From positions 4,855 through 68,854 of IMG/VR virus record IMGVR_UViG_3300047325_000181: a DNA stretch of 64,000 nucleotides. The stretch is one strand, 5' to 3'. The translations under genes and the position numbers were made by a program. Below, one piece after another: positions 4,545 to 46,474 of the stretch. The stretch's first letter is position 1; each line of letters opens with the position of its first letter. The notes beneath the pieces are model-generated. The model was not told the DNA's origin and did no database searches. It worked only from the letters and a program-made list of their open reading frames with translations. This DNA comes from a virus.

Positions 4545-4903
4545 GGGCTGGCGCTGAAGCCGCCGGAAAGCGACGCCGTGCCGAGGACAAGATGCGCGAG
4601 GCCGCCCGCGGCCGGGACGGCGAGCACTGCCAGATGGAGACAGCCTCCGGCTCTGCTTGGATGGTCTGCAAGCGCCGGGCGACCCAGGCAGCGCACGTCT
4701 ACCGGCGCCGCGAGTGCGGCCGGGCAAAGTACGACCCCGACGTCGTCGTGATGGCTTGCGAGCCGTGCCACCGCTCCTACGACGACGACAGCCGCTACGA
4801 TGTCCGGGTGCGCCCCGAGCACGAGGAGCGGGCCTGGGCGGCCATCATTAAGGCCTCCAAGGTACTGCCGCCCCGCCAGACGCTCACGGGCCAGCGGGCA
4901 TGA
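4541..4903 (+). CDS. HNH-like (NinG/Rap-like) nuclease
   Basis: RDGEHCQ..C..ATQAAHVYRR..ACEPCH; GTGA overlap. Confidence 0.65.
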   Translation: MRAGAEAAGKRRRAEDKMREAARGRDGEHCQMETASGSAWMVCKRRATQAAHVYRRRECGRAKYDPDVVVMACEPCHRSYDDDSRYDVRVRPEHEERAWAAIIKASKVLPPRQTLTGQRA

Positions 4904-39619: not shown

Positions 39620-41629
39620 TCACATGCGGCCCTTTTTCCGCTTCTTGTCCGAAACGTAGCCCTTGGGGGCGCCGGTCGCAGTAAAGCCCTTGCGGTGCGC
39701 TTCGGCCAGGTCCTCGGCGGTCGAGGTGGGTGACTCTTTGTAGTCGATGGGGAGCCCGGCTTCTTTCGCGGCGAGGGCGAACTCCTTGAGACCGGGCGCG
39801 ATGCGCGCGACCTTGTCGTGCGTCGAGTTGAGTTGCTCCTCGGGGACCGTACGCTCGCGGTCGGCGTTGCGCATATGCGCCACTTCCCGCGGGGCCTGGG
39901 CCTCGTTGAACTCGACGTCGTAGCCGTTGGCCATCGCCTGCTGGGCCCAGTCTTTGTAGCTGTCCGAGCCGGTCGAATCGTAGACGAAGCTGCCGTGGTC
40001 GGGGTTGCGGATGGCGTTCTTGAGGCGCTCCTTAACGACGTGCGAGGAAATCTCGTGCGTCAGGCCGCCGCCGAAATCTTCGCCCTTGCCGTCTTCGTTG
40101 CGCGGCTTTCCGGCCAGCGGGTGGTCTTTGCCGTACGGCTCTTTGATGACGTTATTGGCGAAATCGCGCGCGTCACGGAAGCCGGTCGCGCGCTGAATGT
40201 AGGCGTCGAGCGCGGCCCGCTCTTCCTCGGGGTACGCCTCAAGCTCTTTCCAACTCTTCGGACCGCTTGGTCCGTAGCGGCCTGCATGGAGTGGGCCCGT
40301 GCTCCCGCTCGGATGCTTGCCCTCCTCGTGGGAGAACATCGGGTTGTTCTTCTTTTCCGCGTCCGAATCGAAAACGGGCGCGTCCTTGAAACCCGGCTGA
40401 TACGCCTTGAACTTCTCGTGGCCGGGTCCGATGATTTCCTTCGTGTAGGTCCCGTCGCCGTTGTCGCGATGATGCGTCTTGCCTTCGTTCCCGGTATAGT
40501 CTTCGACCACGCCGCCCTTACCGACGCCGCCGCCGCCAATCATAAAGACGGCCTTGCGGCGCAGGGTCGAGGAGGGCGGGAGAAAGCCTTGGCGCTTGCG
40601 GTCCGAGACCGCAGCATCGTGGTCGACCGCGCCCGTCTCGGGGTTCGTATGCTCGTCTTCGATGCGCTCGCGGTCGGTCTGCGGCTTCTGCGCAGCCTTC
40701 GCCTTGGCGCCGTGCTCGTGCTTCTCGGCCAGCGCCGCGGCAGCACCGTGCGGCGTCTTGAAATGCCCGAGGAACTCTTTCTTGCCGTTATGGGCGACCG
40801 AACGAGCCTGGTGCGCGTCCTTGGTCTGCTTGATTTCGCCGACCTGGGCGTCGCCCTGATGGACGGAGTGGCCGTCCTTCTGCGGACGAACTTCGTAGTG
40901 CGACCCGGCCTTCGTTTTCACGGAGCCTTTGCCCGAGGAGGGGTCGATGCTCGCCGTCGAGCCGCCGACCGAGACGAACTGACCGTTCTCCGAGGAGTGC
41001 TCGTGACCGGACTCGTCTTTGACTTTGACCAAATCGCCTAGTTTCACGCTTGCCCACTTCTCCGATTCCGGCCGCGCGTCGAGCATCTCTTGGAGCTTCT
41101 GATTATGCGCGTCGATTTCGGCATGCTGTTCCGCGGACATCGGCTTCGTACCGTCTTTCGTGTACTTCGCCTGAAGCCGGTGAATCATGTCGCGGTGGCT
41201 TTTGATGTCGTCCTTGCTGCTGGAGACGCCGGAGCCGCCGGACGTGAACTTGCCGTCCGGGTCGCGGGCTTGGTCTGACTTCTTCACTTTTGGCTTACTG
41301 CGCCAGATTGACTTGGCTTCTGGTTCCGGTTTCTTGGCGTAGAACGAGCCGACTTCTGCCTCAGCCTTGTCTTTGTGAGCATCGCACGACATAACGCGGG
41401 CTCCGTCGCGATAGTCAGCCTCAGCGTGAGAGGTGATGTGGGCCGACTTTTCCCCGCAATACTTACATTTGCCATAAGAGTGCGGCCTCGTCTTGACGCC
41501 CATCGAGTAGGAATCGGAGACGCGCTCACCTTGCACCCCCCAGCCGGACGTAAACTTGCCGTCCGCGTCACGAGACTGGTCTTTGATGAGGTCTCCGAGC
41601 TTCACGGCTTTCTCCTTATTTTGAGGCAC
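39620..41629 (-). CDS. Multidomain head-module protein with RDxxGKF repeats and C-terminal Zeta-toxin-like P-loop kinase
   Basis: KAVFMIGGGGVGKG, FDSDAEKK, FVYDSTG, GYDV..A..RNADRERTVP; DQSRDADGKFTSG and DQARDPDGKFTSG. Confidence 0.75.
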   Translation of the reverse strand: MPQNKEKAVKLGDLIKDQSRDADGKFTSGWGVQGERVSDSYSMGVKTRPHSYGKCKYCGEKSAHITSHAEADYRDGARVMSCDAHKDKAEAEVGSFYAKKPEPEAKSIWRSKPKVKKSDQARDPDGKFTSGGSGVSSSKDDIKSHRDMIHRLQAKYTKDGTKPMSAEQHAEIDAHNQKLQEMLDARPESEKWASVKLGDLVKVKDESGHEHSSENGQFVSVGGSTASIDPSSGKGSVKTKAGSHYEVRPQKDGHSVHQGDAQVGEIKQTKDAHQARSVAHNGKKEFLGHFKTPHGAAAALAEKHEHGAKAKAAQKPQTDRERIEDEHTNPETGAVDHDAAVSDRKRQGFLPPSSTLRRKAVFMIGGGGVGKGGVVEDYTGNEGKTHHRDNGDGTYTKEIIGPGHEKFKAYQPGFKDAPVFDSDAEKKNNPMFSHEEGKHPSGSTGPLHAGRYGPSGPKSWKELEAYPEEERAALDAYIQRATGFRDARDFANNVIKEPYGKDHPLAGKPRNEDGKGEDFGGGLTHEISSHVVKERLKNAIRNPDHGSFVYDSTGSDSYKDWAQQAMANGYDVEFNEAQAPREVAHMRNADRERTVPEEQLNSTHDKVARIAPGLKEFALAAKEAGLPIDYKESPTSTAEDLAEAHRKGFTATGAPKGYVSDKKRKKGRM

Positions 41630-41662
41630 ATCTCGTCCTCCTGGGCTCGCTTGAGGTTCGCG

Positions 41663-42193
41663 TCAGGCGCGCGAAGTCCTCAAGGCCAGGCGCTCGCAGA
41701 CGAAGCTATTGTCTTCCTCGACCACGAGGTCGATGACCATGCTCTCGACGGTCTCGTACTTGAAGTCGTCGCGCGCGACGCGCCCTTCGAGATTCGAGGC
41801 GAAGAGGATGCGGCCGAAGAGCGCCGCCGGGGCGAGCCCGAGCACGATTTGGGGCGCGGCGGTCGTAATCACCATCCCGGCCGGGCGCTTTTCGAGCGTT
41901 ACCGAGCGGCGCTCGGCTTCGGACCAGTCCGATTCGAGAACGGCGCTGACCCCGTCGTAGGGGCCGAGATTCTTGAGACGCTGGAAAGTCGAGGCCCAGT
42001 TCTGAGCGGCCCAGGTCCCCTGGAGAACGGTCAGCGCCCCGAGCAGCATGCAATCGCCAGTGTAAACCGCGGCCCCGATGCGCGTCACGCGCCGGAAGCG
42101 GGCGCGGTGCGTCAGGACCAGTTCGCCGACGGCCACGTACTCAATCGGGACGAGACCGCGCTGCGTGACGACGCGGCAACCGACGGCGACCAC
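41663..42193 (-). CDS. Stand-alone degenerate Hint (intein-like) domain
   Basis: MVAVGCRVVTQRGLVPIEYVAVGELVLTHRARFRRV and VIDLVVEEDNSFVCE align with the neighbouring intein; no C/S1, no TxxH, no terminal HN. Confidence 0.8.
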   Translation of the reverse strand: MVAVGCRVVTQRGLVPIEYVAVGELVLTHRARFRRVTRIGAAVYTGDCMLLGALTVLQGTWAAQNWASTFQRLKNLGPYDGVSAVLESDWSEAERRSVTLEKRPAGMVITTAAPQIVLGLAPAALFGRILFASNLEGRVARDDFKYETVESMVIDLVVEEDNSFVCERLALRTSRA

Positions 42194-43963
42194 TTACGTG
42201 GGCTCGTAGGGAAGCCAGACGCACCGGCAGTTGTGAACCGCAATTCCTTCCACGATAAACGAAGCGTCGCGCTCGACTTGCAAGCAAACGACATCGCCTC
42301 CGTAAAGGGATTGTGATATACTTGACTCGTGCTCTCTAAGGACGAGGTTGCCACACTTTACGCCAAGCACATCGCTGACGGCTTCAGCGTAAAGGAGCTT
42401 GCTCGCGACATCGGACGCAGTCGCGCCTATTTGGTTGCGCAATTCGAGCGCTACGGCCTGAAGCAACGCGGCATCGCCGACTCGAATCGAGTGACGCGAA
42501 AGCGACTCAAACACGCCCTCACCCTTCAAAGTAAGGGCTCTATGACGGTTCTCGAAAAGCTGATGCACGACGCGCTCGTAGCTTTGGGAGAGAGCCCGGT
42601 TTCTCAATACGCTGTCGAGTACCTGAATATCGATGTCGCCATACCTGACGCTTTGGTGGCTATAGAGATTGATGGAGGGGGCTGGCACGGAAGCGACCCC
42701 CGGAAAAAGACTCAGGACGCGAACAAGCAGGCGCTGCTCCAGTCGCGCGGCTGGGCCATTGTGCGCATTTGGAGCATTGGGAAGCGCTTTCGCAAGCGCT
42801 TCCCAGCCTATGCCGAGGACATTGTCGCCCTTGCCAATCTCCGTCGGCAAACGCCACCCGTCGCGCGTCAGAACGGCGTGGTCGCCCGTTATCCGCGCCC
42901 CGCCGATGTCGAAGATAGAGCCCGAATGCTTACGGCGAGACGTCGCAAGTACCCGCGCAAACCGTCCATGATGGGTAAGCACGTACTGACCTGGACTGAC
43001 CGACCCGATGCGCTGGAGCCCATCGGGAGTGATGACGCGACAATCTTCCGTGACTGACCTGGGATGCAGCGGGATGACCGGGAGATAGTCGTCGACCTTA
43101 CGGCCGTAGTTCGACTCGCCGATGATGTCCTTGATGCGCCGGGCCTTGTCGTTGATGAGGCGCAGGCAGTGGTCGCAAACGCGCGAGTCGTGCGCGCTCG
43201 ACCCGATACACCACTCGAAACCTTGGTCGAGCAGTTCCTGGAGGCGTCCCTGGCTCTCGGCTCTGGCTGTCTCCGTGATGGCGATAGTTCCGAAATCGAG
43301 GTTGTAGTTGCGCGTCGTGTTCGCCATCGCGCGAGCCACCTCGCGCGGATTCTTGCCGAGCGCCGCGGCGCCGATAAGCTGCTGGCGAAGCTCGGACTTC
43401 ATTTCCTCGAACTTGCTGTCTAGCTCGTTGAATGTATTGTGTTCGAGGAACTCGATGGCTCGCCGGTCCTCCGCCGTCACGGGCCGGTGCAGCACGGCGC
43501 GGCCGACGTTCGGCGCCGGGCGGTTTTCGCGGCGCGCGCTCGCCAAGCGGTGGTTGATGGCCGCCTCGGTCGCGAGCATCTGGCCGATGAGGTACGCCTG
43601 CATCGGGTGCGAGGCAAGCTCGACCATCGCTTTGGCCTTCCAGTCCTCGACGGACTGGTCAATCGTGTACGGGTCGAGCCCTTCCCACGTCCCGCCGGTC
43701 TTCTCGTAAAGCTGGTCGACAAGCTCGCGAAGCTGGCGCGCGAGGTCGGGCTGGCCTGCGATGAGCGCCCGGTACACCTTGTCTTCGTGCGCGCCGATGG
43801 GGCGGATACCGTGGTCCCCGGGGTCGCCCGGATGCCAGTCGCGCTTCTCTAGTTCGTAGTTCCAGTGCTTTTGCAGAACGCCGAGGGCAGCGTCCGGCGC
43901 GGCGCCCTTGCGAACGGCCAACTGCGCTAAATCGAACTCGACTTCGAGGACCGTCTTATCCAT
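42194..43963 (-). CDS. MuF / SPP1 gp7-like minor head protein containing an intein
   Basis: TIAITETARA..GR, DSRVCDHC, and PLHPR-[intein]-CRCVW. Confidence 0.9.
   Translation of the reverse strand: MDKTVLEVEFDLAQLAVRKGAAPDAALGVLQKHWNYELEKRDWHPGDPGDHGIRPIGAHEDKVYRALIAGQPDLARQLRELVDQLYEKTGGTWEGLDPYTIDQSVEDWKAKAMVELASHPMQAYLIGQMLATEAAINHRLASARRENRPAPNVGRAVLHRPVTAEDRRAIEFLEHNTFNELDSKFEEMKSELRQQLIGAAALGKNPREVARAMANTTRNYNLDFGTIAITETARAESQGRLQELLDQGFEWCIGSSAHDSRVCDHCLRLINDKARRIKDIIGESNYGRKVDDYLPVIPLHPRSVTEDCRVITPDGLQRIGSVSPGQYVLTHHGRFARVLATSRRKHSGSIFDIGGARITGDHAVLTRDGWRLPTEIGKGDNVLGIGWEALAKALPNAPNAHNGPAARLEQRLLVRVLSLFPGVASVPAPSINLYSHQSVRYGDIDIQVLDSVLRNRALSQSYERVVHQLFENRHRALTLKGEGVFESLSRHSIRVGDAALLQAVALELRNQIGATASDVASKLLYAEAVSDVLGVKCGNLVLREHESSISQSLYGGDVVCLQVERDASFIVEGIAVHNCRCVWLPYEPT
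42314..42322 (+). promoter_or_regulatory. Extended -10 promoter inside the intein, antisense
   Basis: TGA-TATACT, GTG start exactly 6 nt downstream; no good -35. Confidence 0.6.
42329..43057 (+). CDS. HTH plus Vsr/DUF559-type endonuclease nested antisense in the intein
   Basis: FSVKELARDIGRSRAYL (HTH); EKLMHDAL..QY..IDVAIP..VAIEIDGGGWHG..QDANKQALLQSRGWAIVRIW. Confidence 0.85.
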   Translation: MLSKDEVATLYAKHIADGFSVKELARDIGRSRAYLVAQFERYGLKQRGIADSNRVTRKRLKHALTLQSKGSMTVLEKLMHDALVALGESPVSQYAVEYLNIDVAIPDALVAIEIDGGGWHGSDPRKKTQDANKQALLQSRGWAIVRIWSIGKRFRKRFPAYAEDIVALANLRRQTPPVARQNGVVARYPRPADVEDRARMLTARRRKYPRKPSMMGKHVLTWTDRPDALEPIGSDDATIFRD

Positions 43964-44057: not shown

Positions 44058-44510
44058 CTACATCGTCAGCGAGGGCGTTCCGGTGCTCGCATCGTGGAAG
44101 AGCTTCGTGTTCGTCGGGTCGACCGCGTAGACCGAAGCGCCGACCGTGAACGTGATGTTCGAGGAGCCGACGATGAGTTCGACCGTGTCGCCCTGGTTCG
44201 CCTTGATACGCTTGCGCGGGATGCGCACGGCGTTGGCGGCGATGCCGAGACCGCTTTCGAGCGGGTTCGTCGAGGAGGGGCCGCCCTGCGCGATGACCGA
44301 CGCCTCGCTCGCGGTGTCGATGATGTCGTAGAAGAACTCGCAGACTTGGTCGACCGAAGCCGCGCCGGTCGAAGCGCCCGAGTCGAGCGCCGAGGTCACG
44401 GGGTTGACCAGAACCTTGAAGTTGACGTTCGTCGCATTCGTCTGGGCCGTCCCGTCCTGCGTGACGGCGCCCGTCGCGGGCGTGAAATGATAGGCGTGAT
44501 TGACGGGCAT
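44058..44510 (-). CDS. Probable virion protein
   Basis: Between portal and MuF. Confidence 0.55.
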   Translation of the reverse strand: MPVNHAYHFTPATGAVTQDGTAQTNATNVNFKVLVNPVTSALDSGASTGAASVDQVCEFFYDIIDTASEASVIAQGGPSSTNPLESGLGIAANAVRIPRKRIKANQGDTVELIVGSSNITFTVGASVYAVDPTNTKLFHDASTGTPSLTM

Positions 44511-44519
44511 CGAACTCTC

Positions 44520-46334
44520 CTAGTCCAGCAGCTTAACGAGGTCGTCGCGGAGCGATTCGAGGTCTGCTTTCTGAACCCCGCTGCCCGGAACCTGGGGCTT
44601 GGGCGGATGCGGCGGCTTCGGCGGCTCCGCGTCGCCGCCACCCACCCACACACCGCCGCCTTCCCCGTCCTCGCCGGGCGCCCCACCCTCGCCGCCGCCG
44701 TCTTCTTGCGGTTGGAGCGCGGGCAAGTCTTCGAGCTTGATGCCGGGCTTGGTCGCAATCGTGATGATGTCGCCGCCGGGCATCGGGGGCAGGCCGAGTT
44801 CGCGCCGGACCTCGTTGCGCGCGAGAATACCCGAATCAACCAGGGAAACGGCGCGCTGCGCGTCCTCAACGCTCTGCTCTTTATTGTCTTCGACGAACTC
44901 GAACTTGACATCGTTGAACGGGAAGATAGCTTTCGAGTAGCCGGAGAGGTCGAGCGGGTCGAGCGCGTTGTTCCGAATCCACATCTGGCCGCGGACGATT
45001 TCGCCGTTGATGAACTCCTGAATCGTGACCGCGAGCGAGTGGATGCCGCGGGACTGGGTCAGGTCCTTCTGCGTGTCGGCCGTCGTGCGGTGGAGGTCCT
45101 CGGTAAACCCGATGTCTTGGAGGGAGAGGCCGTAGACGGCGCACTTGACGTTCGCCCAGTATTTCATCAATTCGAGGACTTCGTTGTCGCGCATCGTCCC
45201 GGTCTGGAGCGGGATGAAGCCCTTGACGCCTTCCTTCGAGCCGATGAAGATGCCGCGCCGGATGCCCTTGGCGACCGACTGGTTCCACTTCATCTCGATA
45301 GCGTCGCGCTCGTCCTGACTCACTTCGGGGCCGAGGTCGAAGACGAATTGCGGGGTGTTGTTGTTGCGGAAGAAGTCGACCATGTACTGGTCGCCGTAGA
45401 GCGCGCCGACCATCTTCTCCAGGATGACCTCGACCGGCGGCTTCCCGTAGCCGGTGCTCTGCTCGTTCTGGAGCATGTAGACGAGTTCGTCGTTGTTGTA
45501 GTACGCCTTAACGATGCCTTGGTCGTACCAATCGTAGGCCGGTTCGGGCGGCTGGGGCGTGGCGAGGTCGGGACGCCGGTAGCGCCGGACTTGGTCGCCC
45601 GGCAAGAGGTAGAGTTCGCCGAGCGCGGAGCCGTCGCAGAGCGGATTCTTCACGATGGGCGCCGCGTCGTAGAGCGTCAGGTTGTCGACGATGCGGTTCA
45701 GGAAGGCCCGGAAGCTCGACTCGGCCGAGGGGTTCGGGCTCTCGAACATCTCCTGGACCGGCAGGATGTGCGACTCGGCCGTCACCTCATGCGCGGCGAG
45801 GCAGTTCTCGAAGAACTCGCGCAGCCGGACGTTCTGGGAGATGTCGCTTCCGGCCGACTGCTCGGAGGAGATGACGTCGCGCAGCGCCCCGGAGGCGCGC
45901 ATGAAGAAGACCGGGTCGAGCACCTGCGGCGTGAACTTCGCCTGTAACTGCGGGTAATTCATCGTCAATTCGGAGACGGTGTGCCAGCGCTTGAGTTCGG
46001 CTTTCACCTTCTCGACGTCGGGGACGATTTTCCACTTCATCTCGCCGATGGCGCGCTTGAGCGTGTTGCGAATCGCGAAGATGATGTCGTCGCGGTCGGC
46101 CAACTGTTCGAGCGTGTAGCCCGGGATAGCGTAGCGCGAGCGCTGGATAAGGTTCTCGCGCGTGTCCTTCGTCGACTCGGGGCGCATGAGCGACCCGCCG
46201 AGCGTCTTCGGGTCGTTGCCCTTGCGGGGCGAGACGCGCTCGGGGCCGAGGAACAAACGGCTGAATCGCCCCGGGTTCCGACGCTGCGGCGGGCGGTTTG
46301 GGCCGAGCGGGACGAGCGAATGCATCTCGGACAT
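44520..46334 (-). CDS. Portal protein
   Basis: DNLTLYDAAPI..ELYLLPGDQV..GYGKPPVE..FFRNNNTP..VYGLSLQDIG..RNEVRRELGLPP; start uncertain. Confidence 0.9.
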   Translation of the reverse strand: MSEMHSLVPLGPNRPPQRRNPGRFSRLFLGPERVSPRKGNDPKTLGGSLMRPESTKDTRENLIQRSRYAIPGYTLEQLADRDDIIFAIRNTLKRAIGEMKWKIVPDVEKVKAELKRWHTVSELTMNYPQLQAKFTPQVLDPVFFMRASGALRDVISSEQSAGSDISQNVRLREFFENCLAAHEVTAESHILPVQEMFESPNPSAESSFRAFLNRIVDNLTLYDAAPIVKNPLCDGSALGELYLLPGDQVRRYRRPDLATPQPPEPAYDWYDQGIVKAYYNNDELVYMLQNEQSTGYGKPPVEVILEKMVGALYGDQYMVDFFRNNNTPQFVFDLGPEVSQDERDAIEMKWNQSVAKGIRRGIFIGSKEGVKGFIPLQTGTMRDNEVLELMKYWANVKCAVYGLSLQDIGFTEDLHRTTADTQKDLTQSRGIHSLAVTIQEFINGEIVRGQMWIRNNALDPLDLSGYSKAIFPFNDVKFEFVEDNKEQSVEDAQRAVSLVDSGILARNEVRRELGLPPMPGGDIITIATKPGIKLEDLPALQPQEDGGGEGGAPGEDGEGGGVWVGGGDAEPPKPPHPPKPQVPGSGVQKADLESLRDDLVKLLD

Positions 46335-46474
46335 AGTCAACGCAGGAGGTTCGGCCGCCCGAGGGCAAACCCCCTCGCCCGGGGCCATGAAGTCATGGTC
46401 CGGGGACAATAAAAAAAGACGCGATGACGGGTACGCCTGGCTCGCGTTTTCTGCTTCTTTAGGGAGATTTTGAC

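Follow-up and report, generated by a model that had tools for sequence, protein, structure and literature searches.

A free-standing, catalytically dead Hint-fold gene family located between MuF and toxin-type effector genes of tailed phages

Inteins are usually viewed as purely selfish inserts. To our knowledge, clear cases of an intein fold co-opted for a host function are very few, the textbook one being the HO endonuclease of yeast. In a stretch of phage DNA of 64,000 nucleotides (positions 4,855 to 68,854 of the 73-kb IMG/VR record IMGVR_UViG_3300047325_000181, here called the window), a short open reading frame resembling an intein directly follows a MuF-like minor capsid gene that itself carries an intein. 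This raises the questions of whether the short frame is a real gene, whether its product can still splice, where it came from, and what it might do in a phage head module. The initial annotation of the locus, made from the sequence alone, had proposed an intein fold domesticated as a non-splicing protein.

The gene, P0001, encodes 176 amino acids at positions 41663-42193 on the minus strand, and is recognised by its ORF and translation, codon composition, homologues and fold. As previously noted, and as the ORF and translation confirm, it starts with a GTG directly after the TAA stop of MuF; the strand is an amendment to that description. GC3 in its minus-strand frame is 0.86, like that of the neighbouring genes. 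On this basis a 313-amino-acid ORF on the plus strand (41375-42316), which is not kept open in relatives, was rejected as a gene and regarded as a GC-rich shadow ORF. Upstream, on the same strand, are the portal gene (44520-46388; Pfam Phage_portal, E 1.6e-19; 98.6% identity to the portal of the near-identical contig L003, whose 622-amino-acid gene was used to infer the start), a conserved 150-amino-acid gene without a Pfam match (44058-44510; a gene of 141-155 amino acids holds this position in all related loci), and the 589-amino-acid MuF-like gene (42194-43963; MuF profile E 4e-163, the match to Pfam Phage_Mu_F being below cut-off). Downstream is a 669-amino-acid effector (39620-41629, minus) that carries repeated tags at its N-terminus and ends in a P-loop kinase domain of Zeta-toxin type. 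The gene had been described as sitting between MuF and a Zeta-like cargo. The position holds, while the cargo assignment requires a qualification: the window effector scores 19.7 bits against Pfam Zeta_toxin, below the cut-off of 22.3, and it is a homologue of the kinase, P0178, that passes with 36.7 bits. A search of PDB sequences with the kinase profile gave a chance-level match only.

In the window, MuF, the Hint gene and the effector (39620-43963, minus) share a reading frame. Between the first two stands a single TAA, and between the last two a single TGA plus 33 nucleotides, including a GGAGGA ribosome-binding site. A fusion of the three by stop-codon read-through was considered and rejected. 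The corresponding genes of other lineages overlap in different frames or have another gene between them, so the shared frame of the window is probably a coincidence.

Homologues of P0001 form a small family. A word-index search returned four proteins of 176-177 amino acids with 96, 59, 57 and 56% identity to P0001, and an exhaustive profile search identified nine more free-standing proteins of 174-192 amino acids that match over their full length (E 4e-28 to 2e-13). Repeating the word-index search with the family alignment yielded no further members among the matches listed. The family has 14 members from at least 12 lineages, all intact and of similar length, with identities down to 28%, and is seen only in uncultured tailed phages. 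P0024, a sequence of 3555 amino acids with 10 matched stretches, was discarded as a spurious tandem-repeat translation. Among the best 150 hits of the exhaustive search, no longer protein matches the family full length; all longer matches are confined, in the manner of inteins, to the splicing blocks at the two termini. A search of one genome for each of 185,579 prokaryote species found no full-length member, only intein-like N-terminal matches, and neither PHROGs nor PADLOC has a family for P0001. Pfam Hint_2 (PF13403) matches P0001 at residues 4-44 only, with 24.0 bits against a gathering threshold of 28.4; 12 of the 14 members match Hint_2 at E up to 0.1 (best 5.8e-6), and there is a precomputed PF13403 hit on the cluster of one of them. 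DNA near-identical to the window occurs in moss metagenomes from several studies, with no RNA run listed among the public runs carrying it.

The relationship to inteins is clearest at the two ends of the protein. In BLASTP comparisons residues 2-53 of P0001 match residues 304-355 of MuF (38% identity, E 1e-7) and residues 153-175 match residues 558-580 (43% identity), the same alignments with the start and end of the MuF intein that had been pointed out before. That intein (MuF residues 303-578; 42230-43057, minus) looks live, with Ser1 (as the earlier alignment had implied), TGDH in block B, a terminal HN and a +1 Cys. Multiple alignments of the family with four MuF inteins reveal what the free-standing proteins have lost. 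Residue 1, which is Cys or Ser in the MuF inteins, is the initiator Met in all 14 members, and no extein precedes it, where a class 1 intein has a Cys, Ser or Thr following its N-extein. The Thr-x-x-His of class 1 block B, T-G-x-H in the MuF inteins, has no His in any aligned member (T, I, V, P or another residue is found instead), and P0001 is also without the block-B Thr, a loss that the initial annotation had not listed. At the other end, AVHN|CRC of the MuF intein lines up with ALRT-SRA of P0001, and across the family HN|C aligns with RT-S, RP-S, RG-S, RW-S or the end of the protein. A terminal His-Asn is found in 0/14 members and a terminal Asn in none. The replacement of residue 1 and the losses of the block-B His and the terminal HN reported earlier are thus all borne out.

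The family does not fall into the other known classes of active Hint domains either. Class 3 inteins (WCT type) have a Cys at block F position 4, where the family has D, R, S, E or G, and a terminal Asn that the family lacks. Pre-toxin HINT and BIL domains of polymorphic toxins lie N-terminal to the toxin domain within one polypeptide, whereas in every lineage the family is encoded by an ORF of its own, complete with start and stop, and the cleavage residues are absent. Only an insert of 40 amino acids is present at the site where an HO-like protein would retain an endonuclease, and searches of Pfam and PHROGs with the family protein found no match to a nuclease family. The family corresponds instead to a domesticated free-standing intein, being nested among inteins in the phylogenetic tree, intact and under purifying selection. 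With no nucleophile at residue 1, no His in block B and no His-Asn at its end, P0001 has none of the known intein, BIL or hedgehog routes to splicing or self-cleavage open to it.

The fold itself is predicted to be complete. An AlphaFold2 model of P0001 built on the 14-sequence family alignment has a mean pLDDT of 75.5 and a pTM of 0.72, with low confidence at residues 100-130, and matches the horseshoe-like all-beta Hint fold with its pseudo-two-fold symmetry. The best 50 Foldseek matches in the PDB are all inteins, BIL domains or hedgehog Hint domains. In VIA-align comparisons with structure representatives, the closest are the hedgehog Hint domain 1at0 (Z 14.6; 129 residues at 2.3 Å), the Clostridium BIL domain 2lwy (Z 14.5) and the NpuDnaB intein 4o1r (Z 14.5), the Hint matches in general aligning 120-130 residues at 2.2-2.5 Å. 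All 29 matches with Z of at least 8 are Hint folds, and the first chain of another fold has Z 3.8. A profile search of PDB sequences with the family gave only a marginal match to the BIL domain 2LWY (E 0.29). That P0001 adopts a complete Hint fold, which the initial annotation had suggested checking by structure prediction, is established as well as prediction can establish it.

Superimposed on this fold is a family-specific insert of about 40 amino acids (P0001 residues 87-127; 41813-41935, minus), delimited by invariant columns of the family alignment. It consists of a helix with the invariant Trp90 followed by a hydrophobic segment, has the motif RG-x-x-I ... IVLG-x-x-P ... G-x-ILFA, and is common to the family and lacking in inteins, as are its invariant Trp, Gly and Pro residues. 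Comparison with split inteins places it at the canonical split site, which is also the point of endonuclease insertion. No longer protein among the best 150 hits matches the segment.

Substitution rates, estimated by the Nei-Gojobori method, indicate that the gene is maintained. Its dN/dS is 0.14 relative to the 96%-identical copy (dS 0.11), and 0.35-0.55 relative to the 56-62% identical relatives, for which dS is near saturation. Between the window and L001, identity is 77% for the MuF extein, 68% for the effector and 57% for the Hint gene, and only 36% for the MuF intein, with a dN/dS of 0.75; the Hint gene therefore keeps pace with its neighbours in divergence, unlike the intein. Between the window and the much closer L003, dS is 0.11 for the Hint gene and 0.06 for the effector, against 0.005-0.03 for MuF, its intein and the portal. 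Judged by these ratios, the Hint gene is under purifying selection and is not decaying. The earlier description of an intact ORF stands, and decay is ruled against by the constant length in at least 12 lineages and the dN/dS of 0.14 in the closest pair. With the Hint fold, the lost splicing residues, the intact frame and purifying selection, the proposal of an intein fold domesticated as a non-splicing protein is upheld, and P0001 is, with high confidence, a real, dead and conserved Hint gene.

Across 20 loci examined by gene tables and profile scans, the gene has a preferred address. The recurring order is portal, a gene of about 150 amino acids, MuF, sometimes a membrane protein of 96-137 amino acids, Hint and a large effector, followed by small ORFs, an S78-type protease and capsid genes. 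MuF, with or without the membrane protein, then Hint and a tagged effector are found in this order in the window and L003, L001/L006, L007, L016/L033/L034, L018, L026, L032 and L050. The search for the MuF and dead-Hint pair in other phages that the initial annotation had recommended thus finds it in several lineages, beside intein-bearing or intein-less MuF. The start of Hint overlaps the stop of MuF in L016, L026 and L050, and the start of the effector overlaps the end of Hint in L015, L026 and L050, a layout typical of genes that would be translationally coupled and co-expressed. In L015 the membrane protein, Hint and a RelA/SpoT effector form a cassette without MuF directly upstream. The small protein directly upstream of Hint in L001/L006, L007, L015 and L029 (L001:2617-2907, L007:5301-5612, L015:2140-2466, L029:60-473) appears to be a two-helix membrane protein that contains hydrophobic stretches and ends in a His-rich helix; a search for it in the phage of the window gave no match at E up to 1.

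The intein of the window MuF has 276 residues and is inserted at LHPR|CRC, 11 codons before the MuF stop; the intein-less allele of L007 reads ...LHPRCRCVWLP. MuF carries an intein in the window and L003, L001/L006, L019 and L032/L050, and is intein-less (301-329 amino acids) in L007, L016/L033/L034, L018 and L026, all of which have kept the Hint gene. That the inteins of the window and L001 are 36% identical and the exteins 77% suggests separate invasions of one homing site, or fast turnover at it. The two also differ in detail: the window intein has Ser1 and a Cys at block F position 4, and that of L001 (L001:753-2609) has Cys1 and an Asp there. Inteins of MuF and minor capsid proteins, some with an antisense endonuclease, were described in 2025 (bioRxiv 10.1101/2025.01.02.630785), and the intein of the window MuF likewise has an antisense endonuclease.

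The origin of the family was addressed with a tree built on the splicing blocks of both termini (96 columns). Twelve of 13 family members form one clade (SH-aLRT 98), the thirteenth, P0030, being on a very long branch. In a careful search with 67 rows, the clade groups with moderate support with the four MuF inteins of this phage group, an intein in a Phage_min_cap2 minor capsid protein and one other intein (UFBoot 82 / SH-aLRT 78). The S-R-(A/G/V) tail of the family aligns with the C-extein sequence C-R-C, and this, together with the position of the Hint gene 11 codons from the MuF intein site, fits detachment from a minor-capsid intein. On this sequence evidence the family probably descends from an intein of MuF or another minor capsid protein. 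An ancestral intein in such a gene would have become detached as a gene of its own, and in some lineages the same site in MuF would later have been invaded anew by live inteins.

The proteins encoded downstream of Hint carry a tag with the consensus LGDL-x-K-x-KD-x-SGHEHG-x-DG-x-F-x-x-GG, of which D, G-H-x-H, G, F and G are invariant; the exception is the untagged downstream gene of L019. In the window, regular expression and alignment identify a full copy, LGDLVK-VKD-x-SGHEH-x4-G-x-F-x3-GG, at effector residues 197-224 (40958-41041, minus). Compared with the 98%-identical L003, the window effector has about 264 extra bases (88 amino acids) near its 5′ end (41277-41542, minus), as would be expected if a tag module had been duplicated. 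Behind the tag comes an enzymatic domain that varies and is a P-loop kinase, a RelA/SpoT domain (L015:2996-4162, 55 bits) or, in L028 (L028:577-1308), a domain of another kind. The tagged RelA/SpoT effector of L015 has 388 amino acids and also matches the PADLOC candidate PDC-S33 (E 1.6e-10). In L001, a further RelA/SpoT gene of 238 amino acids (L001:5593-6309) is encoded in the head module two genes after the kinase effector.

Up to four copies of the tag occur in one protein of 939 amino acids, and an ORF longer than 2000 amino acids has several. The latter belongs to a group of more distant MuF relatives (41-46% identity; L042-L045), in which tagged effectors (such as L044:6792-11548 and L045:6777-12836) directly follow MuF and there is no Hint gene; here successive segments of the long ORF, and of three tandem genes of L044, each open with the tag. 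The tag therefore does not need the Hint protein. It matches no Pfam family, and as far as could be found the repeated GHEH tag is apparently undescribed. From its distribution it could be a capsid-targeting or protease-processing signal, perhaps a general punctuation or targeting motif of cargo proteins, and it offers a separate lead for how capsid cargo is marked.

What the Hint protein does in this setting can be addressed only tentatively. Our preferred overall explanation, which we advance with less than even confidence, is that a domesticated minor-capsid intein has become the binding module of a capsid-cargo cassette made up of MuF, in some phages the small membrane protein, Hint and the tagged effector. 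There are weak indications from sequence and gene order that the Hint protein may now be such a non-enzymatic module, and its interaction surfaces would be the ancestral cleft for exteins and the newer, conserved insert. Somewhat more doubtful is a role as adaptor or chaperone, by which it would help effectors of the Zeta-type kinase or RelA/SpoT kind to enter the procapsid together with MuF. The initial annotation had also proposed a possible structural head component; the position of the gene between MuF and the protease, scaffold and capsid genes is what points to a protein that may be present in the virion. In the most specific and unlikely form of the adaptor reading, the dead Hint cleft would dock on the conserved C-terminal HPRCRC motif of MuF while the insert holds the effectors, so that unfused toxins are packaged and injected. 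MuF-fused RelA/SpoT toxins have been described (PMC3482391; PMC12226406).

The logic of cargo also finds a parallel in another phage, in which a related kinase domain directly follows the portal in one 742-amino-acid protein (L048:7001-9229; Zeta_toxin, 36.7 bits), with no tag and no Hint gene. The N-terminus of this protein contains a Cys motif that bears a faint, doubtful resemblance to the C-terminus of MuF (hhalign probability 39%). The same phage has a GpA-type terminase and a 972-amino-acid Phage_portal_2 protein. Against the adaptor role are the tagged effectors without Hint in L042-L045, the untagged downstream gene of L019, the lack of an adjacent MuF in L015 and the low confidence with which the insert is modelled; Hint and kinase may also occur together merely through a shared ancestry. 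Complex prediction with the Hint family alignment and the effector tag region gave a score of 0.01, which counts neither for nor against the adaptor role.

The same gene order allows for a narrower partnership, in which Hint has no role with MuF and is a neutraliser, chaperone or co-factor of the Zeta-type kinase. It would act like an antitoxin encoded ahead of its toxin, so that the cargo does no harm, or stays unfolded, inside the cell that produces the phage. In all kinase lineages Hint is immediately upstream of the effector, often overlapping it, and the cassette of L015 dispenses with an adjacent MuF. All five loci found in viral contigs with the kinase domain as query also have a Hint gene (5/5), and none of six Hint-less MuF loci has a kinase. 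It is also Hint and the effector that have diverged most between the window and L003. This reading nevertheless seems unlikely. The gene directly downstream is a RelA/SpoT effector in L015 and has another domain in L028, the kinase homologue of L048 has no Hint gene beside it, and the co-occurrence may be a single inherited event, since the Hint-bearing phages are also closer MuF relatives. We also know of no antitoxin role for the Hint fold.

Less probable again is that Hint and the small two-helix membrane protein are membrane-active or ejection proteins, with the insert acting at the host envelope during delivery. Internal and ejection proteins are often encoded between MuF and the scaffold or protease genes, the membrane protein is indeed upstream of Hint in the five loci named above, and the maximum of a 19-residue hydropathy window reaches 1.6-2.2 in 11 of the 14 members, always inside the conserved insert. 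However, the phage of the window lacks such a membrane protein, and the Hint protein has neither a signal peptide nor a clear transmembrane helix. The hydrophobic segment runs into the strand that corresponds to the first strand of the C-terminal half of split inteins, and so may be buried core.

That the gene is a neutral remnant, a decaying piece of an old intein still open by chance, is very improbable. It does have an active intein homing site next to it, its sequence changes faster than that of the MuF extein (57-59% versus 77% identity), and the family is small and rare. Set against this are its preservation at the same length across at least 12 lineages down to 28% identity, the low dN/dS of the close pair, an insert with invariant Trp, Gly and Pro that inteins lack, and conservation far better than that of the real intein between the same phages.

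Two further possibilities retain almost no credibility. The initial annotation had entertained a trans-acting modulator of MuF splicing, and the gene does adjoin MuF, and resemble its intein, in the intein-bearing lineages; its retention beside intein-less MuF in four lineages is a strong argument against any role in MuF splicing and leaves that suggestion unsupported, and in alignments the resident inteins keep all of their own splicing residues and do not share the gene's pace of divergence. A self-processing or trans-cleaving Hint enzyme using other residues, in the manner of class 3 inteins (in which residue 1 need not be a nucleophile; PMC2807308) or some BIL domains, could point to the conserved Thr10 and Thr28, but the protein lacks an upstream extein on which to act, block F position 4 is not a Cys, the terminal Asn is absent, and the family has no conserved set of Cys, Ser or His residues.

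Among known systems, the closest are class 1 mini-inteins of MuF and minor capsid proteins (bioRxiv 10.1101/2025.01.02.630785), which have the same fold as the Hint family (Z about 14), share with it the signature RVVT-x-RGL-x-PIE ... VLTH-x-x-RF ... VEED-x-SF (blocks A, F and G), and are adjacent to it both in the tree and at the 3′ end of MuF. In contrast to these inteins, Hint is a separate gene and not an in-frame insert, its catalytic residues are gone, it has the conserved 40-amino-acid insert where they have a linker or an endonuclease, and it is inherited vertically with its neighbours and not sporadically. A term search of that preprint found no mention of free-standing Hint genes.

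BIL domains (PDB 2LWY, 6Y75/6TMM) and pre-toxin HINT domains (PF07591) also share the fold (Z 14.4-14.5), with weak similarity to 2LWY, and like the family they are tied to variable effector or toxin genes. They are embedded in larger proteins and keep N- or C-terminal cleavage residues, whereas the Hint family stands alone without them. The further idea in the initial annotation, that Hint domains sit in this way in MuF toxin loci, is not supported by the polymorphic-toxin survey, which in its treatment of the MuF delivery route lists papain-like and not HINT peptidases (PMC3482391). MuF polymorphic toxins and phage polyvalent proteins are known from several accounts (PMC5576092, PMC5512222, PMC12226406). 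In MuF polymorphic toxins, as here, MuF is associated with toxin-type domains of variable kind (RelA/SpoT-like, kinase) that are presumed to be capsid-packaged; in the known cases the toxin is fused to MuF, while here MuF, Hint and effector are three genes and the effectors carry the repeated GHEH tag.

The P0001 family is an example of a domesticated intein that occupies a defined place in the genome: a phage gene family that keeps the intein fold without its chemistry, fixed between MuF and toxin-type effectors whether or not a live intein is present. The classical case, yeast HO, is a domesticated VMA1-type intein encoded by a free-standing gene, in which the splicing domain no longer splices and the LAGLIDADG endonuclease domain is kept, its job being to cut DNA. 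Both are free-standing intein-derived genes; the Hint family differs in having no nuclease domain, only the fold and a short insert. If a function were shown, it would be a second, mechanistically different example of intein domestication and a route to studying how unfused effectors are loaded into phage capsids, and if the adaptor reading were true, a stand-alone intein fold would for the first time have a functional role in virion assembly. Other small uncharacterised Hint-fold phage proteins are found in BFVD and the ESM Atlas, for example one of 143 amino acids from Lactobacillus phage P1 (BFVD). They stand alone like P0001 but belong to different sequence families and settings, none being known in a MuF-effector cassette.

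Near the head module of two of the Hint-bearing loci (L018:178-405 and L026:1-940) there are also a gene of the Acb2/Tad1-hairpin type, which by precomputed Pfam hits is the family of anti-CBASS/Thoeris sponges, and a polyvalent protein with ArdC-N and MPTase-PolyVal domains.
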